A stretch of 64,000 bases of DNA. It comes from a virus. Lineage: Duplodnaviria > Heunggongvirae > Uroviricota > Caudoviricetes. Position numbers and translations under genes: made by a program. The DNA lies in the IMG/VR virus record IMGVR_UViG_2836824207_000004, positions 10,278 through 74,277 of that record; one strand, written 5' to 3'. Below, piece after piece: positions 3,321-56,203 of the stretch (position 1 is the first letter of the stretch; each line of letters starts with the position of its first letter). The notes below the pieces were generated by a model. The model did not search any database. It was not told the origin of the DNA and was given only the letters and a program-made list of their open reading frames with translations.

Positions 3321-3398
3321 GCCGAGAGGGCGGAGAATAAAACACCCGAAAGGGGAATAATCCCGACCGTTCCTTTGGCGGTTTTCGAACCTCTTGGC
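3321..3398 (+). ncRNA. Conserved structured 5-prime leader element, copy A (cis-regulatory RNA candidate)
   Basis: Closing stem gccgagagg / cctcttggc encloses an acccGAAAgggg GNRA hairpin and a second hairpin. It is homologous to copies B (4225-4301) and C (36564-36639) with compensatory base changes. It is preceded by a conserved block GCGGTTTTTTT..TAAAATTTGTGTTTCTCCTTTT. Confidence 0.35.
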
Positions 3399-3419
3399 AA
3401 CCCAACTTAAGGACTAGAA

Positions 3420-4224: not shown

Positions 4225-4301
4225 GATCGAGTGGGTGAGGAATACAATACCCGAAAGGGAAATAACTCCAGCTTACTACTAGGCTTCTGAACCACTCGAT
4301 C
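4225..4301 (+). ncRNA. Conserved structured 5-prime leader element, copy B
   Basis: 10-bp closing stem gatcgagtgg / ccactcgatc, internal cccGAAAggg GNRA hairpin and agctt..aggct hairpin. About 85% identical to copy C, with GU and compensatory changes. Confidence 0.4.
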
Positions 4302-4360
4302 ACCAGTTACCTTTATGATAAAGGCAACTGACATTATTCAGAAAATTAGTAGAGGCAATT

Positions 4361-5502: not shown

Positions 5503-6492
5503 TTACTGAATAAACGTGTCCGTTTGAACAAATCGCATCGTAAATTCTTGCATTGCGTCTTCTCGGCGACTGAAATCATATTCAATGCCAACAGGGCGGG
5601 CGATAATGGTTTCTTCAAAGCCACCGTTATTTGTCGCATCATTCACAAAAGCGTGCAGAATGCGGATTTGCACTAAACCGTCTAATAATACGCCCACCGT
5701 GCCATCTTTATGGATCATTGCTGAGGCTTGTTGTTTGAAAAAGCGTTTGATTGTGCCTTGTTCATCGTCCATTGTGGTGATCGATATTTCCGCCTGTTGT
5801 GAGCTTTTTACGCCATCAATGATTGCCGAACCGACATTGTACTGATCAGCCTCAATGGAGAATGGCGTGTAATTAATTTCTGTCGCTAACATATTAAAAT
5901 TAGAGGTAATCCCTCCGCCTTGTTCTCCTAATGCATTCAAAACAGGGATTGAATTAATAGCGTGATTGATGGCAGTTGTTGTAATTGATCCCGCAGCTTT
6001 GCCCCACGCACCACCGATACTAGACGAGAGTTCAGAACCGACTGCCTGACTAATCATTCCGCTTAGACTTCCAAATGCAGATCCTGAATAAGGGGAGATA
6101 TTTAGGAGCCATAAATTCTTTCTTGCTTGCTCTGTCGCATAGGATAACATTATTAATCTTTTGACTTCTTCCTGAGATAACTTCGCTGTCAAAGGACTAC
6201 TTGCAAGCCAAAACTTACTGGAATCGCTACCTATTAATCCTGGTATAAACTTATTGAGTACATTTGAGTTAATAATTGATCCCACAACATTTGCGACATT
6301 CTCAGCATTAAATCCTCCATTGATAAGTTGAACCGCCCCATTAAGAAAAGGGAGCTTATCAGAAGACATTTTAGACGCTGCTATTTTTACGCCCTGATTA
6401 ACAAGCGTATTTCCTATCTTCCCTAATGGGCTATCGCCAAATAAGTCCATTGCTCCGTTTCCTTTAGAACCAACTTCATCAAAAATTCCCAT
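5503..6492 (-). CDS. hypothetical protein (329 aa), Gly/Ser-rich, co-operonic with the ejection-type protein
   Basis: Track ORF ending 1 nt before the upstream gene. No recognised domain. Confidence 0.55.
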   Translation of the reverse strand: MGIFDEVGSKGNGAMDLFGDSPLGKIGNTLVNQGVKIAASKMSSDKLPFLNGAVQLINGGFNAENVANVVGSIINSNVLNKFIPGLIGSDSSKFWLASSPLTAKLSQEEVKRLIMLSYATEQARKNLWLLNISPYSGSAFGSLSGMISQAVGSELSSSIGGAWGKAAGSITTTAINHAINSIPVLNALGEQGGGITSNFNMLATEINYTPFSIEADQYNVGSAIIDGVKSSQQAEISITTMDDEQGTIKRFFKQQASAMIHKDGTVGVLLDGLVQIRILHAFVNDATNNGGFEETIIARPVGIEYDFSRREDAMQEFTMRFVQTDTFIQ

Positions 6493-16060: not shown

Positions 16061-19000
16061 CTAAAAATAGCGTACCTTTATTATCAGCGATGGCATAGCC
16101 CCCGAAGGTCTTTCACCATTTGGTGATGTAAGTACTGGGGGTGCGCCATCGCTGTTACTTTCCGCATTATCTAATAACTTATGCGTATAACCGATTAGTT
16201 TACCTGTTACTTCAAGTTCCCCATTCTCTTTTTCGCCTGCTTTGGTTTGTAGCAATAACTTCATTCCGTCAATTTCAACCTGTTTTTGGTAAACGTGAAA
16301 GGCAATGAACTTATCTTTTCTCTCTTTGTAAGTCTCTTCTCTTCCTACAAATATGCCCTGTGAAAAAACCTCCGCTATTTTAGTTAAGGCTTTCGTTTCT
16401 AGCTCGCCTACCTGTGCGTTAAAAGAAAAATGTTCCACACTTTGATCACGGTTAAAATGGACAATTTTCCCATCACTGGTTTTAATGCGTTTACCTTGCA
16501 AATGTGCTTTTAAATAATCTTGAGCGATCGCATTTAACGTTTCACGATTGGCATTCTCAGGCAAGACTAACTCAGGCAAGGTTTCCCCAACAGCATTGCT
16601 TTGCTCTGACTCCACCGTTGTCTCTTGATCTTCTTTATTAGCATTAATTTCCAAAATATCCGTACCAGAGCTAAGAGTTATTTCTGGCAATGTCCCTTTC
16701 ACATAAGCTCGGAAATAATTTTCTACCCCCTCTTTTAATTCAGTCAAACTATCAAAAGTCATTTCTTTTGGTTCACCAGATGACCATTGAATATAGGCTC
16801 TATATTTTAGCGTTTCTAAATTTTGCGACACATAAAAGAAATAGGTTTTACTCCGCCCCTTTGTAGCAAAATATGTTCCACTAATATAGCCTTTTTCCTT
16901 ACGTAATGGGCGATAATGTTTTTCTTCTTGAATTAACTCCTCGGCCAGTTGGATCGCATCGGTAACACTTTTTGCGTTTTCATTAGCACCAGATACTTTA
17001 GCTTGTCCACCATTGTTTTCTTTGGCATCAGTAACATAGCCCTTTTGTGGCGAAACATTGACCCAATAGCTTTTTTTGCCATCACTGTACCAATTGGCAG
17101 TAATATGAATGTTGTAAGGCTCAGCAGTTTTATGCACAGAATAAGTACAAGATCTTCCCTCAACCGAAAATGGCTCTAGCGTATATCCTGCTTGTTTAAA
17201 TTGTTCGATTTCTTCATCACGCCCAGGTAAGAAAGGTCTATAGCCCTCGCCTTTATAGAGTAAAGAGGTGTGAAGTAAAACAGGTTCAGATTGAATGTTT
17301 TCTGGTTGAGCATTGCTGTTTTCAGGCTCTACTTCCTCATCTTCATCTTTCAATTCAACCCAATTGCCGTTTTCGTCTTTATACTCAACGAAAAGATTAA
17401 GCACATAGCCATCATCATCGACACCATCTAATGCTGGCTGGGATTGTGAGACACTTAAGGCTTCTTTGATTGAGGCAATATGTTCACGTTCAAGCTCTGC
17501 TTGGGCGATATTCCCCTCTTGCTCGTTAATTGGCAAATTATTTTCAAGGACGCTTAATGCTGCTTCAAGCTGATCTTGTGCAAGTTGTGTCGCGTCAATA
17601 ACCAATCCGTCATCAAGGGTTGCGGCATAGTTTAATGCAATCATTAAGTTAGCTTGTTGCGTATCATCAAGTAAAAGTGGATTGAGGCTATTTTTCACTT
17701 GCTTACCATTTAGAATGGCGGTATTATCAGGCTGTAGCTCAGATTGAGCTTGGATTAGGCGACTCTCACCGTATTTGCTCGGCAAGTTTGTCGCCTTTTC
17801 TACATCAATACCATCTAGAATAGCGATATTATCAAGCAGTAGCTCAGATGATTGAGCTTGGTAAAGGTTGGAAACAGAGGATTTGTTAGCCTCGTACGAT
17901 CCAACCTTTTTCATTTCTATGCTATCCATAATTGCATCGAAACCGTCTTTACTATTGCATTCTCCCTCTAAGTTTTCTATACTGTTTCCAGTTGCACTTT
18001 TTGCATTGAATGTCCCTGGAATTGTGTTCAGGAAGGGTTCTATGCTATCAAGTGCAACTTTATTTTTCTCAAGCGTTAAATCATAATGAAGTAATCCATT
18101 AGTGTCCTCTTCAATTACGACATTAATTTTTAATGGTCTATTATCAACCAAAACGTGATTTTCTAAATGAAAATATCTTAATACATTAGGCTTTTTATCG
18201 CTTTTAAAATTATCTTGGATATAGTCCTTGCTGCCTTTAGCCGTTTTGATAATCTCTTCAAGTTGTGCTAATGCTTTTAATTTTAGAGGGTTGGCTGAGT
18301 TTGCTAACGTTTTCTTAATACCTCGCTTGCGGATCTCAATATCTCTATCTAAAAATAGGTTTTTAACCCACTTTCCTTTTAAAGTTTCAGTTAAATGTTC
18401 TAACACTTTACTCCGTAATGCCTTTTTGCCCTCTTCCGTCTCAGTGTCAAACTCGCCAAATTCTTTGCCTGAAATCACTATAGGTTGATCTTCTTGTAAT
18501 TTATCCTCTGTTTTTTCTACTTGTACACTTCCCTCTTCCTCCTCAATCACATCGCCTTTTTCATCTAAAAGAATGATATTGATCATATATTCTTCTTGAG
18601 CTTCATCTAGAATAATGTTATTGTTTTCTCTAGCAAAAGCCGTTATGGTTGATTGATCTTTCTCTGGATAGGTATCAGAGCCGATATCAATATTATCCAT
18701 AATGGCTTTTGATTTTCTTGGTAAAATGAAGTCATAATGCAATAGCCCTTTTTCATCTTGCTCAATCAACACGTCAAAATTCACGTTTTCGCCAGCAATA
18801 TTTACGCTATTTGCAAAACGATAATAGCCTTTTACATTACGCTTTTTCCCCTTTTTCGTGTTTTCTTCCCAAGCTGCTATACCATTCTTAGGTTTTGCTG
18901 TTGCAATAACCTGTTCTATAACAGCCGCAATTTGCAATTTTTTAGGATTAGCAGACCACGCGATAAGCTCGTTAATTCCACGTTGTCTAATTTCAATATC

Positions 19001-20266
19001 TTGATCTAACGCTTTATTTCTAATCCATTTTCCTTTTAAGTTATTTTCTAAGTACTCACGCACTGCCATTCTAAACTTAGTCTTCCCCTCTTCGCTCTCC
19101 GTATCAAACTCGCCAAATTCTTTGCCTGAAATCGCTATAGGTTGTTCTTTATCTTCTTCCTTGTCACTTTCCACTTGACTTAAACGCAATGCTTTTAATG
19201 CCTTATCAACAGGTTCATTAATCATTTCTGCGATTGCCTCAGGGGTATCAGTTAATTCATCGGTGTAGCTAAGGTTTAATTCAGGAATTGAATAAGTTAC
19301 GCCGATCATATTTGTGCCTGATTTTGAATAATGATAGGTTTCGGTTAAAACGTACCCCTCTTTACTTAATTCTTTGTAACTCTCACCTTTCCACCCCTTA
19401 TCTCTCAACATATTGCGAACAGCAACCACTCGGGCTTGGTAAATATTATCTAACTCATCTTCGCGGTCTGATAAACGATCTAAGGCTTTTAATTCAGCGT
19501 AAAGCGAAGCGTTAAGTTCGCTATCCATTAAGCGTTCATCTTCAAGGAGCTGGTCCACCTCTTCTTGTGCCTTCAAATATTGAAGTTCATCAATTTTTTT
19601 CAATTTCTGAGCAAGAATTTTTTCCTTTTCCGCAACACGCGTACGCAACGCATTGACACGTTCAAGGCGTTCTTTGCGATTTTTATTTTGGCGAGCAAAG
19701 GCAGCAGAATTTTTAGCGGCAATTTTCATAATGCGTAATGCCACTTGACGCACATCAATATCCTTACCTTTTTCTGGGGCAACTACAATCGTAATATCTT
19801 TTTTGTTTAGCAACCATTTGAAAGAAATCACCTCATCTTGTGGGGTAATTTTTTTCGGGGTTGTATCGGGATTATGAAAATAGATAGAAACGGTTTGCCC
19901 ATCAGAGAGTTCAAATAAAGCGACTACATTTGCCGTGCCTAATCGCATAAACGGATCGGAGATTTGATAACCTACCACAGTAAGCGGTACTGTTTTCCCT
20001 TCACTATCTTTTACATCAACGCCTGATCGGGACATCACACGTTGCATAATATTCATTTTTGCTGTCAATTTGGCATATTGTGCAATAATTGCATCCATAA
20101 TCAGTGCATTACTTGGTTCTGTTCCATCAAGAACATCATCCATTGTGCAAGGCTCATACATCAGCCCTGCTTTCATATCATCGTTTCGTAATGCGTCAAA
20201 TAATTGCTCAACAGTGGTATTTACTGGGTTTTGTTGGTTATCCCAAAAAGTCAGATTAAGTGCCAT
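16061..20266 (-). CDS. very large (1401 aa) multi-module protein with internal ~170-aa repeats; polyvalent/Dar-like virion protein candidate
   Basis: Repeat pair PIAISGKEFGEFDTESEEGK...LLHYDFILPRK / PIVISGKEFGEFDTETEEGK...LLHYDLTLEKN. Coiled-coil segment. C-terminal module paralogous to 15093-16028. Confidence 0.7.
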   Translation of the reverse strand: MALNLTFWDNQQNPVNTTVEQLFDALRNDDMKAGLMYEPCTMDDVLDGTEPSNALIMDAIIAQYAKLTAKMNIMQRVMSRSGVDVKDSEGKTVPLTVVGYQISDPFMRLGTANVVALFELSDGQTVSIYFHNPDTTPKKITPQDEVISFKWLLNKKDITIVVAPEKGKDIDVRQVALRIMKIAAKNSAAFARQNKNRKERLERVNALRTRVAEKEKILAQKLKKIDELQYLKAQEEVDQLLEDERLMDSELNASLYAELKALDRLSDREDELDNIYQARVVAVRNMLRDKGWKGESYKELSKEGYVLTETYHYSKSGTNMIGVTYSIPELNLSYTDELTDTPEAIAEMINEPVDKALKALRLSQVESDKEEDKEQPIAISGKEFGEFDTESEEGKTKFRMAVREYLENNLKGKWIRNKALDQDIEIRQRGINELIAWSANPKKLQIAAVIEQVIATAKPKNGIAAWEENTKKGKKRNVKGYYRFANSVNIAGENVNFDVLIEQDEKGLLHYDFILPRKSKAIMDNIDIGSDTYPEKDQSTITAFARENNNIILDEAQEEYMINIILLDEKGDVIEEEEGSVQVEKTEDKLQEDQPIVISGKEFGEFDTETEEGKKALRSKVLEHLTETLKGKWVKNLFLDRDIEIRKRGIKKTLANSANPLKLKALAQLEEIIKTAKGSKDYIQDNFKSDKKPNVLRYFHLENHVLVDNRPLKINVVIEEDTNGLLHYDLTLEKNKVALDSIEPFLNTIPGTFNAKSATGNSIENLEGECNSKDGFDAIMDSIEMKKVGSYEANKSSVSNLYQAQSSELLLDNIAILDGIDVEKATNLPSKYGESRLIQAQSELQPDNTAILNGKQVKNSLNPLLLDDTQQANLMIALNYAATLDDGLVIDATQLAQDQLEAALSVLENNLPINEQEGNIAQAELEREHIASIKEALSVSQSQPALDGVDDDGYVLNLFVEYKDENGNWVELKDEDEEVEPENSNAQPENIQSEPVLLHTSLLYKGEGYRPFLPGRDEEIEQFKQAGYTLEPFSVEGRSCTYSVHKTAEPYNIHITANWYSDGKKSYWVNVSPQKGYVTDAKENNGGQAKVSGANENAKSVTDAIQLAEELIQEEKHYRPLRKEKGYISGTYFATKGRSKTYFFYVSQNLETLKYRAYIQWSSGEPKEMTFDSLTELKEGVENYFRAYVKGTLPEITLSSGTDILEINANKEDQETTVESEQSNAVGETLPELVLPENANRETLNAIAQDYLKAHLQGKRIKTSDGKIVHFNRDQSVEHFSFNAQVGELETKALTKIAEVFSQGIFVGREETYKERKDKFIAFHVYQKQVEIDGMKLLLQTKAGEKENGELEVTGKLIGYTHKLLDNAESNSDGAPPVLTSPNGERPSGAMPSLIIKVRYF

Positions 20267-35587: not shown

Positions 35588-36523
35588 TTAACGTAAGTAA
35601 TTTACGGTTTTTGTGGGGCTTTGCTCTGTTCTTGGGCTGTTAAAAATCAAGTTTTCGATTTCTTGCTGTATTTTTTTATCTTTAAGCGATTGGGTGTGCT
35701 TGGCGATAAAGCTTTCTAGCGTTTGTGCAAGTCGATTGCTAGCAGTACCAAGGTTGAAAGCGGTTTTGTAGTTTTTATGGCTTTCCAAGTCGGAAAATAG
35801 CTCCTCTAAACGCTCCCAAGCGGCAACAGAATGATTGATGTAATTCATTGCTTTAGCTAGCATATAGAAATTTTCCATATCTAACGCAAGGCTATTGGGT
35901 GGCAATTCTTGCATTGGGTGCATTGAAGCAATGTAAATCATCACATCACGATGATCTTTGCGTTTGATTTGCTCATATTTCGCCACCGCAAATTTATTTT
36001 TCACTCTTGCCCAGATTTCGCCATAACTCATTTTTGTGCGTTGATGGGTTGCAGCAACGGCGTTTTGAATAAGGCGTTGTTCTTCGGGGGTGATGGTGTC
36101 GTTTTCATTTATTGATAAAACTTTTTCTGCCTTGCCTTTATTCCAATAATCAAACAATGCTTGATAACATTCTCTTTTGTAGGTGATCAAGGTTTCTCTG
36201 ATTTCAGGTTTCACCCGTTTTACATCAATGCCAAATAGCCAGCCGTTGAGGTATTGGATTGGAAGGCATAATGTTTGTTGTTCACCACCTTGTGAAGGTA
36301 TGGTTATAATGACCATACCTTGAGAAAGAACTTCATCGCGTTTAATTCTTGCATATTGAGCTTTCCAGTCCAGACCAATATTTTCACAAATTGGCTTCAT
36401 TGCGACATAATGAACGTTGTTTTGCTCAAATGTAGTTAAAGTGCGGTCGTAAAATTGGATTGTTTGGAGTTGAGTTTGAATTGACATAATAGCCTCTGTA
36501 ATTTTCGAAATTTTGCTAGCCAA
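35588..36523 (-). CDS. phage antirepressor with P22 Ant-type N-terminal domain plus the shared C-terminal domain
   Basis: YVAMKPICENIGLDWKAQYARIKRDEVLSQGMVIITIPSQGGEQQTLCLPIQYLNGWLFGIDVKRVKPEIRETLITYKRECY matches the P22 antirepressor N-terminal pattern. The C-terminal 170 aa is ~95% identical to 4361-5257. Confidence 0.75.
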   Translation of the reverse strand: MASKISKITEAIMSIQTQLQTIQFYDRTLTTFEQNNVHYVAMKPICENIGLDWKAQYARIKRDEVLSQGMVIITIPSQGGEQQTLCLPIQYLNGWLFGIDVKRVKPEIRETLITYKRECYQALFDYWNKGKAEKVLSINENDTITPEEQRLIQNAVAATHQRTKMSYGEIWARVKNKFAVAKYEQIKRKDHRDVMIYIASMHPMQELPPNSLALDMENFYMLAKAMNYINHSVAAWERLEELFSDLESHKNYKTAFNLGTASNRLAQTLESFIAKHTQSLKDKKIQQEIENLIFNSPRTEQSPTKTVNYLR

Positions 36524-36563
36524 TTTAAGGTGTTCTTATAACACGAATACCTTTTGAAATTGG

Positions 36564-36639
36564 TGATCGAGCGGTTCGAAAGCCTACAGCAGGCTGGAGT
36601 TATTTCCCTTGCGGGTATTGTATTCCTCGCCCACTCGAT
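36564..36639 (-). ncRNA. Conserved structured 5-prime leader element, copy C
   Basis: gatcgagtggg / cccgctcgatc closing stem with a GU wobble. Internal cccGCAAggg GNRA tetraloop and perfect agcct-gctgt-aggct hairpin. Confidence 0.4.
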
Positions 36640-36831: not shown

Positions 36832-37068
36832 TCACTTTCTACGTCGTTTTCGGCGTTTTTTAGATGAATTGGAACCAAAAATACCTAATATTGATATTGC
36901 AACAAACAATACAAAAAACACAATTTTAAATATCCAAACTAGGATAGAAAATATCTTTTTAAATATCTTTTTTTTGCTGCCTTTTCTTTCTGCCAGCCAA
37001 ACTTCCTTAGGAATAAGATGAAGAACTGGTTTAGTCGGTTCGTTAGACATTTTCGTTATCCTCATCAT
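36832..37068 (-). CDS. small membrane protein with poly-basic tail (78 aa or shorter)
   Basis: TM segment ILVWIFKIVFFVLFVAISILGIF followed by KKRRKRRRK. It overlaps the end of the upstream gene. Confidence 0.4.
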   Translation of the reverse strand: MMRITKMSNEPTKPVLHLIPKEVWLAERKGSKKKIFKKIFSILVWIFKIVFFVLFVAISILGIFGSNSSKKRRKRRRK

Positions 37069-38305
37069 CTGATTCTGTTATTTCGTTATATTGATTGGAT
37101 TTTTTCATAGCTTGTGATTGGCGATATTCATTGGCTTCTGCAACCATTGTGAACTCCACTTCACAACCTAATTTTTCAGCAGCTTTTGCAATTTCGGCAA
37201 GATCGACCTCAAAAAATTCTTTTTTAGTATTAACTCTATTGACCTGACAATGTGCGAATTTTTTATGTAATGTGTTTTCTAGTTTTGGTGCATCATCTGT
37301 CCTAATTAAAGCGTGGACATCAAAAGGGAATGGAACACTGGCATCACCTAATTCTTTAACTCGATCTAACGGTTCTAATCTTCTTGTCATTCCGATTTTA
37401 TAAACATTTTCCCCAAAAGAACCAATGTTAGAAATGACATATACCGTACCTTGTTTGGTGAGTTGAGCCATTGATATAGCACGTTGAGAGTCTTCTATCG
37501 CTTGCTTTAAATCTTGTTCTGCTTGAGCCAGTTTAGCTAATAACTCTTTATTGGTTTTATCTAATTCAAGCAATTTTTTATACTGTGCGATCTCTTTTTG
37601 AGCTTCCCTCTCTTTTTGTTCCGCTAGTTTTCTTTGTTTTTCAGCTTCACGTTGAACTTTTTGTTCTTCTCTCATCTCTTCTTGAATACGTTGCTGTTCC
37701 TCTTTTTCTCGTTGTTTTTTAAGTTCATATTCAAAGGCTAGGTGTAATTCTTCGTGTTTCAGAGCTAAATAATCTTCGCTAATGAAGATCCGAAATATCA
37801 CGCCTTGTTTGTTTAACCTTTCAAAGGACTTAGTCATTTTATTCTTGAACAAATCAAAGTTTCGGAAAGAGACATCGTTAATCAATAAATCACATTCTTT
37901 GTCAAATGCCGTAAGCATTATAGTTGATATGTTATTCATCATAGTAAAACCATCTTTTTCAGCTGTTTTACCTAGCCCGACGACCCATTCAGCATCGGAA
38001 TATGTAGCTTGCTCTGATTTTTTTAATTCAGCTTGTTTCTGTTTATTTTCATTCCATTTTTCTTTGAAACGTTTAGAAGAGCGAAATCTGAATTTTGGTG
38101 TGTAAGGAGCAATAGTGGAGACTTCTTGAGCGCATTCTGATTGACTGCCCTTAGAAAAGGGTTGTCCTTGATTGTTTTTGAGTTTCTTCCATTTTCTATA
38201 GTAAATAACAAATAAGATTAAAAAAATAGGGGAGGATAAAAACCAAATGATTGGTAATGCGGCGTCCATAAATAAACTCCTAAAATGAATGTGGGAATTT
38301 ATCAT
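37043..38305 (-). CDS. membrane-anchored DUF4041-like coiled-coil protein with C-terminal T5orf172 (GIY-YIG-like) domain
   Basis: N-terminal TM, long E/K/Q coiled coil. C-terminus VYVISNIGSFGENVYKIGMTRRLEPLDRVKELGD...EFFEVDL fits the T5orf172 pattern. Confidence 0.6.
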   Translation of the reverse strand: MINSHIHFRSLFMDAALPIIWFLSSPIFLILFVIYYRKWKKLKNNQGQPFSKGSQSECAQEVSTIAPYTPKFRFRSSKRFKEKWNENKQKQAELKKSEQATYSDAEWVVGLGKTAEKDGFTMMNNISTIMLTAFDKECDLLINDVSFRNFDLFKNKMTKSFERLNKQGVIFRIFISEDYLALKHEELHLAFEYELKKQREKEEQQRIQEEMREEQKVQREAEKQRKLAEQKEREAQKEIAQYKKLLELDKTNKELLAKLAQAEQDLKQAIEDSQRAISMAQLTKQGTVYVISNIGSFGENVYKIGMTRRLEPLDRVKELGDASVPFPFDVHALIRTDDAPKLENTLHKKFAHCQVNRVNTKKEFFEVDLAEIAKAAEKLGCEVEFTMVAEANEYRQSQAMKKSNQYNEITESDDEDNENV

Positions 38306-47302: not shown

Positions 47303-47842
47303 ATGGCAAGTATTGAAGATATTATTATTCCCCAGCAAGAAATCAATCATATCATGGCGATAGAAAAACAAATTCATTTTAAAGGAGCCACATGGGGGAA
47401 AAAACAAAAAACTCAGCCTTATCCTTATTGGCTTGAGTTAAAGCTTCCGTTCTTCGATAGTGATGGATTACCTATACCTCAGCTTAGGGCCTATTTTGCC
47501 TATCGTCCTGCTCGTAGAGAAAATTTAATGCCATCGATGAACTTTATTGCTTTTTATAAAAACAGACGGTTATTTGCTATTGATCAAGGTGAAAAGTTAG
47601 TTCATGTAAATAAAATAACTCATGTAAAGCCCATAGCCGAAAGCCGTATTTGTGGTGCTCACTACCACATTCTACACGGTAAAGAAAACCAAGAAACGGG
47701 CTATTTACTAGATGAAAAATATCAAAAATCAAATGATTTTTTTGAATTGATGTGCTATTTTCTAGCAAAATTTAATACTGTCGCAGTGGGGCAAATTCCT
47801 CACCCAATCTTATCAAACAACGGACAAATGGAGCTATTATGA
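47303..47842 (+). CDS. hypothetical protein (179 aa), first gene of the rex-position pair
   Basis: Track ORF. No recognised domain. Confidence 0.55.
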   Translation: MASIEDIIIPQQEINHIMAIEKQIHFKGATWGKKQKTQPYPYWLELKLPFFDSDGLPIPQLRAYFAYRPARRENLMPSMNFIAFYKNRRLFAIDQGEKLVHVNKITHVKPIAESRICGAHYHILHGKENQETGYLLDEKYQKSNDFFELMCYFLAKFNTVAVGQIPHPILSNNGQMELL

Positions 47843-48603
47843 TATGCAGCACAGTCTTATCCAATCTAGGCTATGAATGTCATTCTATTGCCGATGATTT
47901 GATTTTAATTAATACCCCTTTCACTCTTGAAGATGGTAGCGTTATTCAGGCATACATTGAACAAGTGGGAGAAAATCGTTTTACTGTCACTGACGATGCT
48001 CAAACTTTGTGGGAAATGAACGCTCGAGGAATCAATCTAACCACTAACCGTATCGACCAAATAAAAAGCACGTTAAAACGTTACGGATTAAACTTGAACG
48101 ATCGAGCGGAAATCAACACGACAACAAGCGGTGAAATGCTTACACATAATTTGCAACGCATCATTCAAGCGGCAATTATCACAGATACGCTTGCTATGGA
48201 TTGGTACAACGTGCCAATAGATAAATTCGAGATGATGGTAAAGTCTGATTTTCGCCATCATCAATTCCCTCAAAATATCGGATTTGATGTGAAAAAATCA
48301 GGATTGAGCGGTCATCAAATTACAATCCCAATTTCATTAACCGGCGGAGAGCGACACACCAAACAGATTTTTACAACGAGTGTAAAAGCAAAAGGCAGTT
48401 GGAGCAGTGCTTATGGCGTTCTAGGTAAAATAATGGATCTGACCAATCCAACAGCACAAACAAATGATGAATCTTATGTGGTCATTGATGATAAAGCAGT
48501 AGGTGATCAATTAAATAAACTTATTCTGCTCTTTAATCAATCTCCGGCAAAGATTCTGCCTTATGATAAAAAAGATATTTGGCTTGAAAAACTCGCCGCT
48601 TAA
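47839..48603 (+). CDS. hypothetical protein (254 aa), second gene of the rex-position pair
   Basis: Start overlaps the upstream stop (ATGA), so the two are translationally coupled. A terminator follows. Confidence 0.55.
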   Translation: MICSTVLSNLGYECHSIADDLILINTPFTLEDGSVIQAYIEQVGENRFTVTDDAQTLWEMNARGINLTTNRIDQIKSTLKRYGLNLNDRAEINTTTSGEMLTHNLQRIIQAAIITDTLAMDWYNVPIDKFEMMVKSDFRHHQFPQNIGFDVKKSGLSGHQITIPISLTGGERHTKQIFTTSVKAKGSWSSAYGVLGKIMDLTNPTAQTNDESYVVIDDKAVGDQLNKLILLFNQSPAKILPYDKKDIWLEKLAA

Positions 48604-48950: not shown

Positions 48951-49121
48951 TTAAACTTCGCGAACAGGTGTTTGTCGGTTAGTGTCCATAACAAGCCCGA
49001 TACAATGTAAGCAGTTTTGTTTGGTCGTATAACCTTCACTTTGAGCTATAGGTTCGTGATTGGCGGCTTTTAGTCGCCAATACCACTGACCATTAACACC
49101 TTTGAAAATTTCAAAATACAT
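48951..49121 (-). CDS. DUF1508 (YegP-like) small protein (56 aa)
   Basis: MYFEIFKGVNGQWYWRLKAANHEPIAQSEGYTTKQNCLHCIGLV fits the DUF1508 repeat. Confidence 0.7.
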   Translation of the reverse strand: MYFEIFKGVNGQWYWRLKAANHEPIAQSEGYTTKQNCLHCIGLVMDTNRQTPVREV

Positions 49122-49135
49122 AGAGGTAACTCCTT

Positions 49136-49357
49136 ATGCAAAACGAAATGAAACGCTATGCAATTTCTTACTTCTTCAAAGGAAAGAAGTGGTGTTCAGA
49201 TGTCTACGCCAACTCATTTGAAGAAGCACAAGAAAAAGTCAAAGCAATGTCCCAAGCAACTATTGATGGTGAGCTTTACTGTTCAATATATGTTCCAGTC
49301 AAGCCACAATCACGCATTGCAAGGTTGCTTTTAAAGCTACTACATAAATTTAGCTAA
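49136..49357 (+). CDS. hypothetical protein (73 aa)
   Basis: Track ORF with an AGGTAA-like RBS. Confidence 0.45.
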   Translation: MQNEMKRYAISYFFKGKKWCSDVYANSFEEAQEKVKAMSQATIDGELYCSIYVPVKPQSRIARLLLKLLHKFS

Positions 49358-49381
49358 TTCAATATTTCATCTTGGTGATGA

Positions 49382-49395
49382 TGCTCTTTAACAAT
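49382..49395 (+). promoter_or_regulatory. boxA-like element TGCTCTTTAACAATTTAGAAC (copy 2)
   Basis: 17/20 identical to rrnB boxA. Confidence 0.5.
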
Positions 49396-49613
49396 TTAGA
49401 ACCCACTCCCCTTTTTACAAAAGGAAGCCGAAAGGTTGGCAAGTCTGTGCCAGTGGGGCTGAGGCAAACAGGCTTATTTATTCAATGCCGTATTTACGGA
49501 GAACCAAGGCAGCAGAACCGAGAGGAATGCAATGCAAAGAATCAACCGTGATACCGAGCCGAGATGAACGTTAGACAAGTGCGGCATTGAATAAATAACA
49601 ACAACGGAGGTGA

Positions 49614-49931
49614 ATGATGAATATCGTCATTGAACGTAACCCAGCGAGCAAAAAATACTGCGAAAAGGCAGAAATTCGCTCAATGGGCAAGGCTGGCAGA
49701 TTAGCAAGAATGTTTGCCAAATCTCGCCAGAAAAAAATCAAAACGGGAAAACCTGACCGAATTAAGACCGCACTTGTAATGTTGCCGATTCCGTCAAAAT
49801 CCCAAATTGAAAAAGCGGCGGCTCAATTTCAAGCCGTCAAACCGAATTACCACAAAGGCGAAATCGGCGTAAATACCGTGCGGGCCACACAAAAAATCCG
49901 CCGTGGTTGTCAGGAGTTAATGAGGATTTAG
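49614..49931 (+). CDS. small basic protein (105 aa); N-like antiterminator is only a guess
   Basis: Lys/Arg-rich. First sizeable ORF after the second boxA. Confidence 0.45.
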   Translation: MMNIVIERNPASKKYCEKAEIRSMGKAGRLARMFAKSRQKKIKTGKPDRIKTALVMLPIPSKSQIEKAAAQFQAVKPNYHKGEIGVNTVRATQKIRRGCQELMRI

Positions 49932-49934
49932 ACG

Positions 49935-50192
49935 ATGAAAAATAAAATTACTGATTTAAACAACCATCTTTTTAGTCAATTAGAAAAATTGTTAGATGAA
50001 GATTTAACAGATGAAGAATTAAAAAGGGAAATTGCTAGAGCGAATGCGGTATCTGGTATTGCATCGAATATCATTCAAAATTCTAATACAGCCATTAAAG
50101 CAATGCAGCTTTTCGGTGACCGCACTATTGAGGCAGATGCACCCGATTTTTTAAGAATATCAAAGGCACAAAATGACAAAAAAACGCTTTAG
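49935..50192 (+). CDS. hypothetical protein (85 aa)
   Basis: Track ORF. Confidence 0.45.
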   Translation: MKNKITDLNNHLFSQLEKLLDEDLTDEELKREIARANAVSGIASNIIQNSNTAIKAMQLFGDRTIEADAPDFLRISKAQNDKKTL

Positions 50193-50880
50193 GTTTACTG
50201 ATGAACATATTGCTTTTATCCGTGAACATAAAGATTTAGCTCCTAAAGATCTCATTCAGGCCTTTTATCAACAATTTGGTTTGCTAAAGAATAGGCAGGT
50301 TTTTAGAAAGCTAAAAAAACGATTAGGAATTATCTCAACGGTTCAACATTGCAATCGATATACCAAAGAAGAGTTAGCCTTTATCAAAGAAAATTGCACT
50401 TTACCGCAAGCGGAATTAACCAAACTATTTAATCAAAAGTTTAACCGTAATCAGACCGCACAAGTAATTAGGGCACTGTGTGCTAAAAGAGGTTGGCTGA
50501 CTGGTAGAAATGGGCGATTTAAAAAAGGAGAACATTTAAAGCCTATTGGTTACGAGCGATTTTGCCCTATGGCAAAAGCCGTGTTGATAAAAACAGGAGT
50601 TAAGCGTTATGAAAGAAAATCACACGTTATCTGGGAACAAGCCTTTGGCAAAATCCCTCAAGGATTTGTTTTGTGGTTTAAAGACGGCAATATTCAAAAT
50701 TGTGAGTTATCTAATTTAGAACTAATCAGTCGTAATGAAATGCTATGGCGACATAAGCTGAATTACCACGAATTAGACAGCAGTGTGAAACAAACTTTTA
50801 ATGTGTTTATTCAACTACGAGAAAAATTGATAAAACTCAAAAAGCAACAGCAACAAAAGGACCGCATAGCAAAAGGATAA
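50173..50880 (+). CDS. HNH endonuclease (HNH_3-like)
   Basis: SHVIWEQAFGKIPQGFVLWFKDGNIQNCELSNLELISRNE is typical of HNH_3 homing-type endonucleases. Confidence 0.7.
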   Translation: MTKKRFRFTDEHIAFIREHKDLAPKDLIQAFYQQFGLLKNRQVFRKLKKRLGIISTVQHCNRYTKEELAFIKENCTLPQAELTKLFNQKFNRNQTAQVIRALCAKRGWLTGRNGRFKKGEHLKPIGYERFCPMAKAVLIKTGVKRYERKSHVIWEQAFGKIPQGFVLWFKDGNIQNCELSNLELISRNEMLWRHKLNYHELDSSVKQTFNVFIQLREKLIKLKKQQQQKDRIAKG

Positions 50881-50935
50881 GCTAAGGTGCTGTCACCACC
50901 TGAGATTGTAGGTTCAAGTCCTACTGCGGTCGCCA
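50860..50935 (+). tRNA. tRNA-like element with Asp (GUC) anticodon arm, non-canonical 5-prime half that overlaps the HNH stop
   Basis: Perfect acceptor pairing GACCGCA/TGCGGTC with a G discriminator and CCA. T-arm gtagg-ttcaagt-cctac. Anticodon arm aggtg-cuGUCac-cacct. The D-arm is one nt short and the V-loop is 6 nt. Confidence 0.3.
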
Positions 50936-50943
50936 ATTTATCA

Positions 50944-51009
50944 CAAGGCACACTGAGTCATTATCTACGGATTATTTTAGACCAATCTTCTTGCCGTAGT
51001 TAGTGTGCC
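50944..51009. repeat. nested inverted repeat (12-bp arms ACAAGGCACACT / AGTGTGCCTTGT with an inner 6-bp pair)
   Basis: Perfect 12-bp arms separated by 42 bp. Lies directly after the tRNA-like element. Confidence 0.6.
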
Positions 51010-51116
51010 TTGTCATAACTTTCATTCAAAACCGCATTCTTAGCCGCTCGTTTTTAGTCTTTTTCATCGTGGCTTTGCGTGCGGTTCTAAATGAGATGAG
51101 AAATAGGAGAAACGCA

Positions 51117-52265
51117 GTGAAAAAATATGAATTAACCGATGAATATATTGAGATCGGATTTACAACTAAAATTAAACTCTATCGCATAAAAGCTTTAGTA
51201 GCAATCGCATCAATCGGCGTTAGTGCTGGTGATTTGGGTGGCTATATTGAGAAAGAGTCAAACTTAGATCAGAGCGGCGATGCCTGGGTGTACGATAATG
51301 CCAAGGTGTACGATAATGCCAAGGTGTACGGCGATGCCGTGGTGTCCGGTAATGCCAAGGTGTCCGGTAATGCCAAGGTGTCCGGCGATGCCGTGGTGTG
51401 CGGTAATGCCGTGGTGTACGGTAATGCCAAGGTGTACGGCGATGCCAAGGTGTGCGGCGATGCCAAGGTGTACGGTGATGCCGAGGTGTACGGTGATGCC
51501 GTGGTGTGCGGTGATGCCAAGGTGTACGATAATGCCGTGGTGTGCGGTGATGCCGAGGTGTACGATAATGCCGTGGTGTCCGGTGATGCCGAGGTGTCCG
51601 GCGATGCCAAGGTGTACGGCGATGCCGTGGTGTGCGGTAATGCCGTGGTGTACGATAATGCCGAGGTGTGCGGTGATGCCGTGGTGTACGGTGATGCCGA
51701 GGTGTACGGTGATGCCAAGGTGTACGGCGATGCCGTGGTGTCCGGTGATGCCAAGGTGTCCGGCGATGCCGTGGTGTGCGGTGATGCCGTGGTGTACGGT
51801 AATGCCAAGGTGTACGGCGATGCCGTGGTGTACGGTGATGCCGTGGTGTCCGGTGATGCCGTGGTGTACGGTGATGCCGAGGTGTACGGTGATGCCAAGG
51901 TGTACGGCGATGCCGTGGTGTCCGGTGATGCCAAGGTGTCCGGCGATGCCGTGGTGTGCGGTGATGCCGTGGTGTACGGTAATGCCGTGGTGTGCGGTGA
52001 TGCCAAGGTGTACGGTAATGCCGTGGTGTGCGGTGATGCCAAAGTGTCCGAGAGATCTGATATTGTATGGTTTTCGAATGTTGGTACGGAGTACGGAACA
52101 TTAACCGTATTTAAAACTAAGCAAGGAGTATTGTGGGCTACTAGAGGATGTTTTAGTGGCTCTGTTGAGGAGTTTTTGAAAAAATCCGCGGAAGTTCACG
52201 ATGAAAAAACGAAAAGAGAATATCAACTCTTGATCGAAGTGGCTAAATCCAGATTAGGTGAATAA
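51117..52265 (+). CDS. 6-residue-repeat (beta-solenoid-like) protein, about 43 copies of V-[YSC]-G-[DN]-A-[KVE] plus unique N- and C-terminal domains
   Basis: GTG at 51117 has an AGGAGA RBS. The in-frame ATG at 51096 is an alternative start. The repeats are encoded by 18-bp tandem DNA repeats. Confidence 0.6.
   Translation: MKKYELTDEYIEIGFTTKIKLYRIKALVAIASIGVSAGDLGGYIEKESNLDQSGDAWVYDNAKVYDNAKVYGDAVVSGNAKVSGNAKVSGDAVVCGNAVVYGNAKVYGDAKVCGDAKVYGDAEVYGDAVVCGDAKVYDNAVVCGDAEVYDNAVVSGDAEVSGDAKVYGDAVVCGNAVVYDNAEVCGDAVVYGDAEVYGDAKVYGDAVVSGDAKVSGDAVVCGDAVVYGNAKVYGDAVVYGDAVVSGDAVVYGDAEVYGDAKVYGDAVVSGDAKVSGDAVVCGDAVVYGNAVVCGDAKVYGNAVVCGDAKVSERSDIVWFSNVGTEYGTLTVFKTKQGVLWATRGCFSGSVEEFLKKSAEVHDEKTKREYQLLIEVAKSRLGE
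51271..52050 (+). repeat. about 43 tandem 18-bp repeats (GGTGTACGGCGATGCCAA variants)
   Basis: Variation is concentrated at codon positions giving Y/S/C, D/N and K/V/E. All three minus and plus frames are open here, which is an artefact. Confidence 0.8.
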
Positions 52266-52318: not shown

Positions 52319-52346
52319 GCCCACTGTAACAGGTGGGCTTTTTTAT
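52319..52346 (+). terminator. Rho-independent terminator
   Basis: gcccac-tgtaaca-ggtgggc followed by TTTTTT. Confidence 0.7.
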
Positions 52347-52358
52347 AGGTACAAAAAA

Positions 52359-52667
52359 ATGAAAATTTTTATTAATTTAACCGCAAAAGAAGCAACACCA
52401 GAGCAAAAATCTGCTGGTGTTATTGATGTCGATCCAGCGTTACGCCATCAATTCAACCGAGCATTAACCTTCTTCAGCCAGCCGAGCAAAGCATTGATTG
52501 AAGAGCGTGCCGCCTATCTAACCACAATGGCGGCACAACTTAATGCCGATTATGTGTTGGTTGATGCACCTCTGTTTTTAATTTCAACCCTTGAAAGCAA
52601 ACTCAAAGCAAGAGGCATTCAGCCCGTTTATTCCCTCTATCCCTATAGTGGATTTGTTGAAGTTTAG
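52359..52667 (+). CDS. hypothetical protein (102 aa)
   Basis: ATG 52359 lies downstream of the terminator. The track ORF started earlier at 52317. Confidence 0.45.
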   Translation: MKIFINLTAKEATPEQKSAGVIDVDPALRHQFNRALTFFSQPSKALIEERAAYLTTMAAQLNADYVLVDAPLFLISTLESKLKARGIQPVYSLYPYSGFVEV

Positions 52668-53628: not shown

Positions 53629-54784
53629 AGATGGCTTTGAAGAACGGTTACAAGCAGAAATCCAACGCATTGACGAGCAAATCAGAAAGGGCGATGAAAC
53701 GCTCTTTGACGAGTTCACCCAAACCCTGTGCGACAACGATTTATTTTGGCTTGCCGTAGGAAGCGGAGCGGATTACCTCCCCTACCGACAACAAACCATC
53801 GAGAAATTAGCCAAGCAAAAAAATCATTCAGAGGATTTAATAATGGAATTCAATTTAATTTTATCCACCGAAAGCAAAGTGCTTTCAACCAACATTTCCA
53901 CCTTCCAACAACAAGCCGAAAACTATCTTGCCGGGCTTAGCAACAGATTTGAAACGGATGACGACTTCGCCCAAGCAAAGCAAGACATTAAAGATTTAAC
54001 CGAGCTAGAAAAACGCACTAAAGAAGCCATTGCCAATGCTCAAAATGGCGAAATTAAACAGCTTATTGAACAGGCTCAAGCGATGGCAGAACGTTTCCGC
54101 CAAGCTCGTTTAGAGCGTGAAAAGCTGGTGAAAACCAAAGAAGCGGAAATCAAAGCGAGCATTGTTAATGACGCATTTGAGCGACTTGCCGTCATTAAAT
54201 CAGGCTTTGAAAATGATGTGTGCATTGCACTTGAACAGGTTATCTCAAAAGCCACGATTAAAAAACGCTTAGACGAAGCAACCAAACGCCGTAGCACCCT
54301 TGCTACTCTCACGAAAGCTGTAAATGCCGAAGAAACCCTTATCGGGGCAGAAATTGCAGCAGAAGCCGCACGCCTTTCAGCGCGCCGCAAGCTAATCCCT
54401 ATCTCTTATGAGTATCTCTTTAAGGATTGGCTCAACCTGATTACTGGTGATGACGACCTTGAACCTATCATTCAAGCACGCATTGCTGATGAAGAAAAAC
54501 GTGAAGCGAAAATCAAAGCCAAAGCGGAGCAAGAGGCAAAAGCTCGCGCAGAAGCGAAAGCAAACCTTAACGCATTACAAACCAACGAGAAAACAGAAAC
54601 CAATGAAAACACGGCGCATATTGAACCGCAAACGCCAACACAAGAAACGGCAGCAACGGCAACGCAATTTATTCTCAAAATCCCAGCTCAAGAAATCCCA
54701 TTTACAGGAACGCTTGAACAATTAAGAGAATATTTCGCTCCAGTGAAAGCGTTGGGAATTACTGCAACGATTGTTAAACAATAA
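53558..54784 (+). CDS. coiled-coil protein (408 aa) upstream of recT
   Basis: Strong RBS GGAGAGG precedes ATG 53558. Long E/K/A-rich coiled coil. Confidence 0.5.
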   Translation: MNYLQIAQAYDRQSERLLEAHYAEDGFEERLQAEIQRIDEQIRKGDETLFDEFTQTLCDNDLFWLAVGSGADYLPYRQQTIEKLAKQKNHSEDLIMEFNLILSTESKVLSTNISTFQQQAENYLAGLSNRFETDDDFAQAKQDIKDLTELEKRTKEAIANAQNGEIKQLIEQAQAMAERFRQARLEREKLVKTKEAEIKASIVNDAFERLAVIKSGFENDVCIALEQVISKATIKKRLDEATKRRSTLATLTKAVNAEETLIGAEIAAEAARLSARRKLIPISYEYLFKDWLNLITGDDDLEPIIQARIADEEKREAKIKAKAEQEAKARAEAKANLNALQTNEKTETNENTAHIEPQTPTQETAATATQFILKIPAQEIPFTGTLEQLREYFAPVKALGITATIVKQ

Positions 54785-54794
54785 GGATTATACG

Positions 54795-55574
54795 ATGACA
54801 ACAGCACTTCAAACCTTAACAAATAAACTCGCTGAACGCTTTGAAATGGGCAGTAGCGAAAATCTACCACAAACCCTAATGGCAACTGCCTTTCGTGGGC
54901 AAAATGTAAGCCCCGACCAAATGACCGCCCTACTGGTTGTTGCTAACCAACACGGCTTAAACCCTTGGACAAATGAAATCTACGCATTCCCAAATAACGG
55001 TGGCATTGTGCCGATTGTCGGCGTGGATGGTTGGTCTCGCATTATGAACGACCACCCACAATTTGACGGTATTGAATTTACCTTTAATGATGATAACAGT
55101 TGCACCTGTAATATCTACCGCAAAGACCGCACTCGCCCAACAACAGTTACGGAATATATGATCGAATGTAGCCGCAACACGCAACCGTGGAAATCGCACC
55201 CAAAACGAATGTTACGCCACAAAGCGATGATCCAATGTGCAAGGTTAGCTTTTGGCTTTACTGGTATTTATGACCAAGACGAAGCTGAACGCATTGTAGA
55301 AAATCAAAAAGAACCGTTAAATGTAACGCCAAAACCGAATGTGATTGAAGGGCAAGCAGTCGAATTAGCCACATCTGAACAAATCGACACCCTCAATCAG
55401 CTTATTCAGCTCACGAACACTGACACTGAAAAAGCCTTTGCCTACTACAGTGTGCAAAGTATTGAGCAGTTGTCAAAAGCGAAAGCGGAGCATTTTATCA
55501 AGACCCTTAACGGGCGATTAGATGAATCTGCACAAAATGACAACAACAAGGCGAGCGAGGAAGTTCCACTATGA
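54795..55574 (+). CDS. recT: RecT-family single-strand annealing protein
   Basis: ..IYAFPNNGGIVPIVGVDGWSRIMNDHPQFDGIEF.. and ..RMLRHKAMIQCARLAFG.. match RecT. Confidence 0.85.
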   Translation: MTTALQTLTNKLAERFEMGSSENLPQTLMATAFRGQNVSPDQMTALLVVANQHGLNPWTNEIYAFPNNGGIVPIVGVDGWSRIMNDHPQFDGIEFTFNDDNSCTCNIYRKDRTRPTTVTEYMIECSRNTQPWKSHPKRMLRHKAMIQCARLAFGFTGIYDQDEAERIVENQKEPLNVTPKPNVIEGQAVELATSEQIDTLNQLIQLTNTDTEKAFAYYSVQSIEQLSKAKAEHFIKTLNGRLDESAQNDNNKASEEVPL

Positions 55575-56203
55575 TAGACGGTTTGATCACCCTTGATTGT
55601 GAACAAGGTTCGGAAGAATGGCTAACCGCACGGTTAGGCATTCCTACCGGTACGGGGTTCAAAAATATCGTTCGAATAAGCGGTGATAGATCCGCTACCT
55701 ATATAAAATACCTTGCCGAGTTGGTCGAAGAAAGCATTTTAGGTTTACCTGATAGCCGTTATAAATCTGATTATATGGAGCGTGGCAACCAGCTTGAACC
55801 GCTTGCACGCGGTGCTTATGAGTTCTTGACTGGCAACAAAGTACAGCAAGTCGGCGGCGTGTACCTTGATGAGAAACGAGAAGTAATGGTTAGCCCTGAT
55901 GGACTCATTCCCGAACTGAAAAAAGGGTTAGAAATTAAATGCCCGAAAATGAGCACACACATTACTTACATTATTGAAGGGGGCATACCGCTTGAATATG
56001 TTATCCAAGTGCAAGCGAATCTGTGGGTAACAGGCTATGAAACGTGGGATTTCGTCAGCTACTGCCCCGAATATCAAAAGCAGCCGCTTTATTTATTCAC
56101 GGTAGAACGAAATCAAGCATTGATGGAAGCGTTTGATTACCATATTCCCGAATTTTTGACCGCACTTAAGGCACTTAAAGGAGAAAACCAATGGCAGGCA
56201 TAA
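55571..56203 (+). CDS. YqaJ-like recombination exonuclease
   Basis: [21 protein letters not shown]...VSPDGLI... fits the YqaJ/lambda Exo-like fold. Paired with recT. Confidence 0.8.

Follow-up and report, generated by a model that had tools for sequence, protein, structure and literature searches.

YdcK of Salmonella and E. coli (Salmonella crystal structure 2F9C/2PIG; Pfam PF18836; NCBIfam NF040481) is a chromosomally encoded beta-solenoid protein made of six-residue repeats (hexads). Together with several phage proteins of PHROG 7964, 5070 and 20532, among them orf229 (gp229) of Streptococcus phage Sfi19, gp43 of Mannheimia phage vB_MhS_587AP2 and gp34 of Ruminococcus phage phiRM10, it is the closest described relative of the gene analyzed here. 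This gene lies on a 64,000-nucleotide stretch of viral DNA (IMG/VR record IMGVR_UViG_2836824207_000004, positions 10,278 to 74,277; hereafter the window) and encodes a 382-amino-acid (aa) protein made largely of tandem hexads. The window protein and YdcK share a homologous N-terminal cap (N-cap) and hexad repeat, and both lack an assigned function. YdcK, however, has irregular hexads and no counterpart of the 70-aa C-terminal domain, whereas the window repeats are near-perfect at the DNA level and vary in number. The phage proteins are closer, agreeing in architecture, C-terminal domain and early position, and they too carry 18-bp repeats at the DNA level (12 to 25 copies, 84 to 89% matches), but they are only 210 to 270 aa long, with about 12 to 25 hexads against 43 in the window protein.

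Other known systems invite comparison. Bactofilins (PF04519; BacA, PDB 2N3D) form a three-sided beta-helix that takes about 18 residues to make one turn, and the Prokaryotic Genome Annotation Pipeline (PGAP) names relatives of the window protein after them, although the window helix is capped at its ends, gives no match to PF04519 at E ≤ 0.1, and is homologous to the left-handed YdcK. In the gene of NeuO, a proven enzyme, a 7-bp repeat at the 5′ end switches the reading frame on and off. In the window gene, by contrast, it is the helix that is repetitive, and its 18-bp units never disturb the frame. The likeness lies in a prophage-encoded beta-helix protein whose gene carries a variable-number tandem repeat (VNTR), NeuO being the phase-variable polysialate O-acetyltransferase of prophage CUS-3 (PMC3046976). 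Pentapeptide-repeat mimics of DNA (Qnr, MfpA), as well as Ocr and Gam, resemble the window protein as acidic regular solenoid rods encoded by mobile elements in a position compatible with counter-defence. However, the window repeat has a period of six and not five and a three-sided and not a four-sided section, and acidity is not conserved in its family.

The window gene is a new, extreme member of a known but uncharacterized family and not a new kind of gene, since public databases already contain the family, the repeat and a solved relative, and many phage genomes have annotated homologues. The earlier note, made by a model that saw only the letters, had not recognized the family, but the protein matched PF18836 (YdcK beta-solenoid repeat) with 97.9 bits against a cut-off of 30 (E = 6e-29), as well as PHROG 7964 (E = 1.4e-140), 5070 (E = 2.7e-108) and 20532 (E = 2e-63, over residues 292 to 381), all of them of unknown function, and the family has thousands of members. 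The YdcK crystal structure was found by phmmer (E = 2e-18, query residues 23 to 293), with N-cap residues 23 to 60 (query ...AGDLGGYIEKESNLDQSGDAWVYD) aligned to residues 25 to 65 of 2f9c. Judging from model scores, the window protein is evidently not a YdcK orthologue; the equivalog model NF040481 gave 106.2 bits against a cut-off of 350 and covered residues 1 to 310 only, with the C-terminal domain outside the model. No exact record of the window protein was present in the gene-position index, and no DNA nearly identical to its gene was found in deposited phage genomes.

The reading frame was taken from the open reading frame (ORF) 51003-52265 on the + strand, the only one with non-repetitive ends; long ORFs in the other frames and on the minus strand also cross the array, because the repeat unit is free of stop codons. 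Within it, the gene runs from GTG 51117 to the stop codon at 52265. A start at ATG 51096 had been proposed before, but GTG 51117 is most likely the correct one, since the Shine-Dalgarno sequence AGGAG (51106-51110, 6 nt upstream of the GTG) is conserved in all alleles, and the alleles of four related loci (L004, L019, L025 and L005) have an ATG at the very place of the GTG and an in-frame stop six codons upstream, which excludes the upstream start in them. The parts of the gene are as follows.

51117-51287, + strand: N-cap, aa 1 to 57, KYEL...LYRIKAL...AGDLGGYIE.E.NL.Q.G.AW, homologous to the YdcK N terminus (phmmer)
51288-52043, + strand: 42 clean 18-bp units, V-[Y/S/C]-[G/D]-[D/N]-A-[V/K/E], the solenoid rod and VNTR (Tandem Repeats Finder, unit table, PF18836)
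52044-52061, + strand: degenerate 43rd unit, VSERSD, at the junction with the C-terminal domain (unit table)
52062-52265, + strand: conserved C-terminal domain (aa 316 to 382) and stop codon (AlphaFold, pLDDT of 85 to 95; profile search)

Tandem Repeats Finder reported one array that stands out, at 51275-52040, with no other repeat of the window near it in strength (period of 18, 42.6 copies, 84% matches, no indels, score of 923). The earlier count of about 43 hexads thus holds with a refinement, 42 clean units plus the degenerate one. Over the 43 units, the first position is V in all, and the fifth is A in 42 and S in one. The second is Y in 22, S in 11 and C in 10, cycling through TAC, TCC and TGC as had been noticed. 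The third is G in 37, D in 5 and E in 1, the fourth is D in 29, N in 13 and R in 1, and the sixth is V in 20, K in 16, E in 6 and D in 1. Variation had been thought to be confined to three positions; these do vary, but so does a fourth, position 3, which is D in five VYDNA units. In the 42 clean units, V1 and A5 are invariant and always encoded by GTG and GCC. Six of the 18 nucleotides of the unit vary (nucleotides 5, 8, 9, 10, 16 and 17), and five of these six variable sites are nonsynonymous. Silent sites are almost invariant, both in the window array and across 182 units pooled from nine Avibacterium arrays. Multi-unit duplication is also visible, as units 23 to 28 equal units 33 to 38, and higher-order periods of 54, 72, 90, 108 and 126 bp were reported.

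The array differs from its surroundings in composition, with a GC content of 0.61 against 0.40 for the window and a G-rich coding strand (GC skew of +0.33 to +0.39). It carries 20 copies of GTGGTG, all on the coding strand, and uses the Asp codon GAT 34 times. A Chi-site decoy was considered for the GTGGTG copies and rejected, since no exact copy of the Chi-type octamers GCTGGTGG or GNTGGTGG was found inside the array. At all five nonsynonymous variable nucleotides of the unit, A is one of the states. A diversity-generating retroelement was therefore considered too, but the base changes are restricted, no reverse transcriptase domain was found in the ORFs scanned (part of those in the window), and Tandem Repeats Finder detected nowhere else in the window an invariant copy of the repeat that could be a template, so this reading was also discarded.

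To follow the array through alleles, we used the related loci (designated by L numbers below). The upstream flank 49100-51280 (2.2 kb, with an HNH endonuclease gene, a tRNA gene, the leader and the N-cap) was 99.3 to 99.6% identical between L022 and L034, L001, L002, L003 and L021, and the window, and yet the arrays behind it had 17 units in the first pair, 31 in the following four and 42 in the window. Other Avibacterium alleles had 2, 4, 5, 6, 19, 20 and 38 units with both terminal domains intact, the only alleles with damaged domains being L005 (a nonsense codon at Trp57) and L064 (single-base errors). All the changes in copy number were multiples of 18 bp, which bears out the earlier suggestion that the repeat could expand and contract in frame. 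The order of unit variants was wholly different between alleles with near-identical flanks, and blocks were duplicated inside arrays (a 5-unit block present three times in L020 and a 4-unit block three times in L019). Copy numbers occupied every class modulo 3 and, because one hexad makes one-third of a helix turn, alleles differ in how the end domains are oriented to each other.

The two ends of the gene have different affinities. The N-cap coding part of the window was 96.5 to 98.8% identical to those of L001, L022 and L064 and only 88.8% identical to that of L019, while the C-terminal part was 100% identical to that of L019. The array is a recombination junction as well, between N- and C-terminal halves with different histories. 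Altogether, the allele comparison showed the array to be a frame-preserving hypervariable VNTR that also mediates the mosaicism of alleles. Outside Avibacterium, the arrays of relatives (in other Pasteurellaceae, Sfi19, phiRM10 and metagenomic prophages) had 12 to 27 copies with 82 to 94% matches and different codons, and this homogeneity at the DNA level in other genera makes concerted evolution of the array a trait of the family.

It had been conceded that the repeat tract might be an artefact of assembly. This is unlikely, because an independent, error-rich contig that looks like long-read data (L064) carries nearly the same array (42.9 units, in the same order as in the window over approximately the first 30) and arrays of 31 and 38 units appear in other assemblies. 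Several short-read contigs (L023 and L029 to L033) end inside the array, and for this reason the gene is often recorded as partial. Damaged copies were also seen. In L005 (A. paragallinarum NCTC11296), a stop codon replaces the conserved Trp57 in the gene at 5947-6222; the copy of about 43 units at 5243-6004 of L064 is riddled with indels; and the Mannheimia haemolytica loci (L018 and L066 to L069) retain remnants of 88 aa, an N-cap joined to the final 26 residues of the C-terminal domain. The repeat gene seems, from such copies, to be decaying in some places.

The unique domains noticed at both ends of the repeats are present and conserved among relatives. Across 75 sequences, residues G41, G42, E45, E47, N49, L50 and W57 of the N-cap are invariant or nearly so, and the C-terminal domain shows the motifs VGTE.GTLTV, TRGCF.G, EF, H and EY.LLIEVA, with four predicted beta strands and two helices. 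The same three-part plan (YdcK-like N-cap, hexads and a C-terminal domain of about 70 aa) was common to the sequences and alignments inspected, with the family motifs KYEL…LYRIKAL…AG.LGGYIE.E.NLSQ.G.AWV in the cap and VGTENGTLTV…TRGCF.G…EFL…H…EY.LLIEVA in the C-terminal domain and with family-wide hexad preferences of V / Y,S,C,F / G / N,D / A / R,W,E,Q,K. Family members have 1 to 43 hexads, typically about 18; the 120 top relatives had 7 to 26 per protein (mode of 18), and the C-domain representatives listed had at most 22. The longest single-module array seen is that of the window allele, with 43 units, together with that of the noisy contig L064.

Members of the family abound in temperate phages of Firmicutes, Proteobacteria and Bacteroidetes. 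In a search of 5.8 billion proteins, at least 5,869 relatives at E ≤ 1e-10 were found among the 8,000 candidates scored, and tblastn gave a match in 85 deposited phage genomes, with Streptococcus, Bacillus, Liberibacter, Vibrio, Xanthomonas, Bacteroides and Mannheimia among the hosts. A word-indexed search with the C-terminal domain retrieved only 26 fragments, mostly partial genes at contig ends, so that an exhaustive profile search was needed. This search against 1.84 billion representatives gave 944 clusters, and only two of the 150 matches listed had the domain anywhere but at the C-terminal end. Of the 102 listed proteins of at least 150 aa, 92 had three or more in-register hexads and 86 had the cap motif GG[YFWL][IV]. 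The domain had no Pfam match even at E ≤ 10, no relative in the PDB by sequence, and no Foldseek match in the PDB better than E = 0.8; a resemblance to the beta-beta-beta-beta-alpha fold of Pur-alpha was non-significant (Foldseek E of 2.6 to 2.9) and was dropped.

Relatives are usually annotated as "polymer-forming cytoskeletal protein" or "hypothetical"; the first of these labels has no support, and nor do "glycerol kinase" and "acyltransferase", which are also found in databases. Two relatives, P0007 and P0009 (618 to 629 aa), consist of three consecutive modules of N-cap and hexad helix, and the cap-plus-helix unit therefore behaves as an independent module that can be duplicated. In the Vibrio breoganii phages 1.034.O and 1.034.X, several annotated spacer matches of clustered regularly interspaced short palindromic repeats (CRISPR) overlie the homologous gene, indicating that host CRISPR systems target it.

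The regular hexad had been taken as a sign of a beta-solenoid, and a solenoid with 18 residues per turn is well supported by modeling, in agreement with the homology to YdcK. In the full-length AlphaFold model, the predicted local distance difference test (pLDDT) was 81 to 94 for the N-cap and 75 to 94 for the C-terminal domain, and its best Foldseek match was YdcK (2pig). When 21 hexads and the C-terminal domain were modeled, one model was confident (pLDDT of 82; the other four, 60 to 63), with a short strand every six residues at a pLDDT of 84 to 89. This best model fitted the bactofilin BacA at 2.5 Å over 102 residues, and it superposed on right-handed helices at 2.5 to 3.4 Å, compared to about 11.5 Å for YdcK and the left-handed beta-helix (LbH) enzymes. 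On the hand of the helix, the homology (left) and this model (right) disagree, and we give the homology somewhat more weight.

The position of the gene gives some indication of its role. In all 12 phage or prophage contexts examined, it is co-directional with its neighbors and belongs to an early or accessory group of genes, in most cases with the immunity switch on one side and replication or recombination genes on the other. Examples of these surroundings are the following.

Streptococcus phage Sfi19: cro, orf229, Mu-Gam-like gene, Sak4, helicase
Ruminococcus phage phiRM10: cox, gp34, Gam-like gene, Rad52-type single-strand annealing protein (SSAP), NinB/NinG
Mannheimia phage vB_MhS_587AP2: RecT, exonuclease, gp43, terminator and, farther along, methylases
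Liberibacter phage: gene broken into two ORFs, which come straight after the C2 repressor region
Xanthomonas phage CP1: adjoining a phage RNA polymerase and a homing endonuclease
Metagenomic prophages: neighbors include Bro-N antirepressors, ERF, DNA methylases, MazG, Lar and RNA-repair genes

The early accessory region is the usual home of counter-defence and host-takeover genes, and the early position is suggestive of such a function in a non-specific way. A connection with the hypervariable prophage genes of Liberibacter (hyvI/hyvII type) was considered and dropped, since the homologue there is a different, split early gene by the C2 repressor and has no annotated link to them.

Our preferred reading, put forward tentatively as a reasonable possibility, is a non-catalytic, cytoplasmic host-interaction protein produced early by a temperate phage of A. 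paragallinarum, with a rod of variable length. The location would be cytoplasmic because the N terminus (MKKYELTDEY), read from the sequence, has no signal-peptide character. The protein would be non-catalytic because the repeats have neither His nor loops, enzyme family models score far below their cut-offs (the best one, 39.7 bits against 440), and alleles of 2 to 43 hexads keep their end domains. The three-sided solenoid, with three hexads (18 residues) per turn, would stand between the N-cap and the alpha/beta C-terminal domain, V1 and A5 of each hexad filling the core, G3 and D/N4 making the turn, and positions 2 and 6 varying at the surface. The near-perfect 18-bp repeat would expand, contract and reshuffle through slippage or unequal recombination, probably helped by the phage RecE/RecT-type recombination genes found downstream, and since the unit is a multiple of three bases, the frame would always be kept and only the length and surface pattern of the rod would change. 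The array would also offer shared homology for the re-assortment of N- and C-terminal halves between alleles. The protein would act by binding, the conserved terminal domains making specific contacts and the solenoid serving as a rigid spacer or scaffold whose length is free to vary. It would help to take over the host, to counter its defences or to protect phage DNA transactions soon after infection or induction.

A further step, which we regard as a more doubtful possibility, is that the array is a contingency locus of the phage, in which changes in rod length and in the surface ladder (positions 2, 4 and 6), as well as re-assortment, are selected in an arms race with a host factor. These changes might serve to evade a defence sensor that recognizes the rod protein or to tune the reach between the end domains. 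If this were true, the family would be a new class of length-programmable phage counter-defence or host-takeover proteins.

Several observations weigh against a host-interaction role. The evidence for it is limited to gene position, variability and the lack of catalytic features, while placement in the early region is common to many unrelated functions, no PADLOC defence model matched the repeat gene, and our literature search found no paper or experiment on any member of the family. The length variation could be selectively neutral. The relatives P0007 and P0009 have no C-terminal domain, which means that this domain is not always needed. On the structural side, AlphaFold modeled the long array of the full-length protein poorly (pLDDT of 30 to 63), probably because the aligned relatives are half as long, and the hand suggested by homology to YdcK disagrees with that of the best model of the shorter construct, the other four models of which are of low confidence.

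The other functions suggested for the repeat in the earlier note fare differently. An ice-binding surface does not fit, as there are no Thr ladders, indeed no Thr in the repeats, no signal-peptide character, and the host is a bird pathogen; nor does an adhesin-like fibre, given the lack of a signal peptide and a gene that sits among early genes, with the structural genes at 5 to 35 kb on the other strand. The possibility of a decoy or DNA mimic deserves more attention. According to this explanation, an acidic rod would block a host nuclease or a restriction or defence protein such as RecBCD, as Gam, Ocr and the pentapeptide-repeat proteins do. The window allele would suit such a task, with an isoelectric point (pI) of 4.36, a rod net charge of -25 (-0.58 per hexad) and Asp at the turn position in 29 of 42 units. 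Moreover, most relatives are acidic (median of -0.24 per hexad) and several phages have Gam-like, SSAP/exonuclease, methylase and Lar genes as neighbors. However, the charge of the rod is not conserved, ranging among relatives from -0.83 to +0.29 per hexad, with 23 of 108 neutral or positive, and since it reaches such positive values mimicry cannot be the general mechanism of the family. Alleles with only 2 to 6 hexads exist, the hexad period and three-sided section are unlike those of the known pentapeptide mimics, and in some phages (Sfi19 and phiRM10) a Gam-like gene already adjoins the family gene. We therefore consider mimicry unlikely. To a similar degree, we find it improbable that the protein is a bactofilin-like polymer, forming right-handed beta-helical filaments or scaffolds that might disturb division or organize phage replication, as would follow from the GenBank name "polymer-forming cytoskeletal protein". 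The fit of the best model to BacA and the precomputed PF04519 matches of some relatives, partly faint, point in that direction, but only one of the five models was confident, the window protein itself lacks the PF04519 match, and its solved sequence relative is YdcK and not a bactofilin. Bactofilins polymerize through end-to-end contacts of their helices, which conserved non-repeat domains at both ends would block, and alleles of 2 to 6 hexads could hardly make a bactofilin core.

The remaining explanations seem less probable still. The database name "putative acyltransferase" would imply an acyl- or acetyltransferase with a left-handed beta-helix, acting on a molecule of the host or the phage, but this is very unlikely, as the window protein gave no match to PF00132 (Hexapep) and has no His and no loop insertion across 42 consecutive units. 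At the DNA level, the array itself might be the functional element, as a recombination hot spot, an R-loop-prone G-rich tract or a set of iteron-like sites, with the protein being secondary. Its high GC content, its G-skew and the GTGGTG copies on one strand would agree with this, and so would the almost invariant silent codon positions within and between Avibacterium arrays and the junction of differently related gene halves at the array. Nevertheless, the hexad pattern of the protein is kept across phyla with different DNA units (GGCAACGCTCGGGTATAC in Rodentibacter, TCCGGTGACGCTCGGGTA in a Ruminococcus phage, for instance), almost all alleles preserve the frame together with the two terminal domains, the array has no exact Chi-type octamer, and recent duplication of units alone predicts homogeneous silent sites, so that we give this explanation very little weight. 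Whatever the role of the tentatively preferred host-interaction protein, Avibacterium offers a natural allelic series of 2, 5, 6, 17, 19, 20, 31, 38 and 43 hexads with near-identical promoters and terminal domains, ready material to ask what the rod does and whether its length matters. The value of the locus lies in this documented series, in an unexplained conserved C-terminal domain, and in being a very common early gene without known function, and the array could also be of use as a VNTR for typing strains or prophages of A. paragallinarum.

The immediate surroundings of the repeat gene contain the following features.

50173-50880, + strand: HNH endonuclease gene, directly upstream (Pfam HNH_3, 45.3 bits; PHROG 1891, E = 2.7e-51)
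50860-50935, + strand: tRNA-Asp, anticodon GTC (ARAGORN; Rfam RF00005, 42.3 bits against a gathering score of 29)
50935-51116, + strand: structured leader with two hairpins, ending in the Shine-Dalgarno sequence (inverted-repeat search, RNA folding)
52319-52348, + strand: intrinsic terminator, GCCCAC-loop-GTGGGC followed by a T run (terminator scan)

What had been described as a tRNA-like element is a genuine tRNA-Asp(GTC), recognized by both programs, and its start overlaps the end of the HNH gene. The pair is found upstream of the repeat gene in L001, L002, L003, L021, L022, L034 and L064 and is absent from L020, L004, L026, L027, L019 and L024, a distribution that suggests a mobile homing-endonuclease/tRNA insertion. 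The inverted repeat reported before the gene is real as well (20-nt arms at 50935-50954 and 51002-51021, 90% complementary), and a second one lies at 51022-51045 and 51071-51094. The 187-nt leader (50930-51116) folds with -57.8 kcal/mol (z = -5.3), none of 200 shuffled sequences being as stable, and had no Rfam match; it might serve as a processing site, as an attenuator or to protect the 5′ end. A terminator is likewise annotated directly after the Mannheimia phage homologue. Right after the terminator of the window, an ORF of 102 aa (52359-52667, + strand) had no match in Pfam, PHROG, NCBIfam or PADLOC, and none at the DNA level in the related prophage loci, where about 3 kb of other DNA is found. 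As related loci carry different DNA there, this place is a variable cargo slot.

The window as a whole is a temperate phage, and its host is A. paragallinarum, a poultry pathogen, with five near-identical loci in strain NCTC11296 and many more in IMG/VR prophage contigs. The minus strand carries structural genes at 5 to 35 kb (for portal, baseplate, tail fibre, a tape-measure-like protein and a DarA-like head protein). Antirepressors and a repressor-like gene (at 46267) are found at about 44 to 46 kb, followed by a rightward early region with the order repressor-like gene, HNH, tRNA, repeat gene, terminator, small ORFs, RecE-like, RecT-like and exonuclease, the last three about 1.4 kb downstream of the repeat gene, at 53630-56200.

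Some other features of the window were observed. Three matches to the Rfam family sRNA-Xcc1, all above the gathering score (60 to 72 bits), are located at 3321-3406 (+), 4225-4309 (+) and 36558-36639 (-), each directly upstream of an ORF. Two of these ORFs are of antirepressor type, 4361-5257 (KilA-N and ORF6C) and 35588-36523 on the minus strand (P22_AR_N and ORF6C), and the third, 3420-3899, has no Pfam match; antirepressor genes seem to share the element as a 5′ leader or regulatory RNA. Near one of its copies, on the side of the structural genes, a 420-aa ORF (37043-38305, minus strand) contains DUF4041 and T5orf172/MUG113. In the early region, two adjacent ORFs at 47303-48600 (179 and 254 aa; DUF6978-like and DUF1828) matched PDC-M24A and PDC-M24B, a candidate defence system of PADLOC (E = 1.3e-4 and 2.1e-14), and may be a prophage-encoded defence pair. 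Finally, the N-terminal 250 to 350 residues of a 1,401-aa ORF on the minus strand (16061-20266) resemble DarA of phage P1 and a protein of Xanthomonas phage Rb1 described as an internal head protein, so that its product may be a Dar-type anti-restriction head protein.

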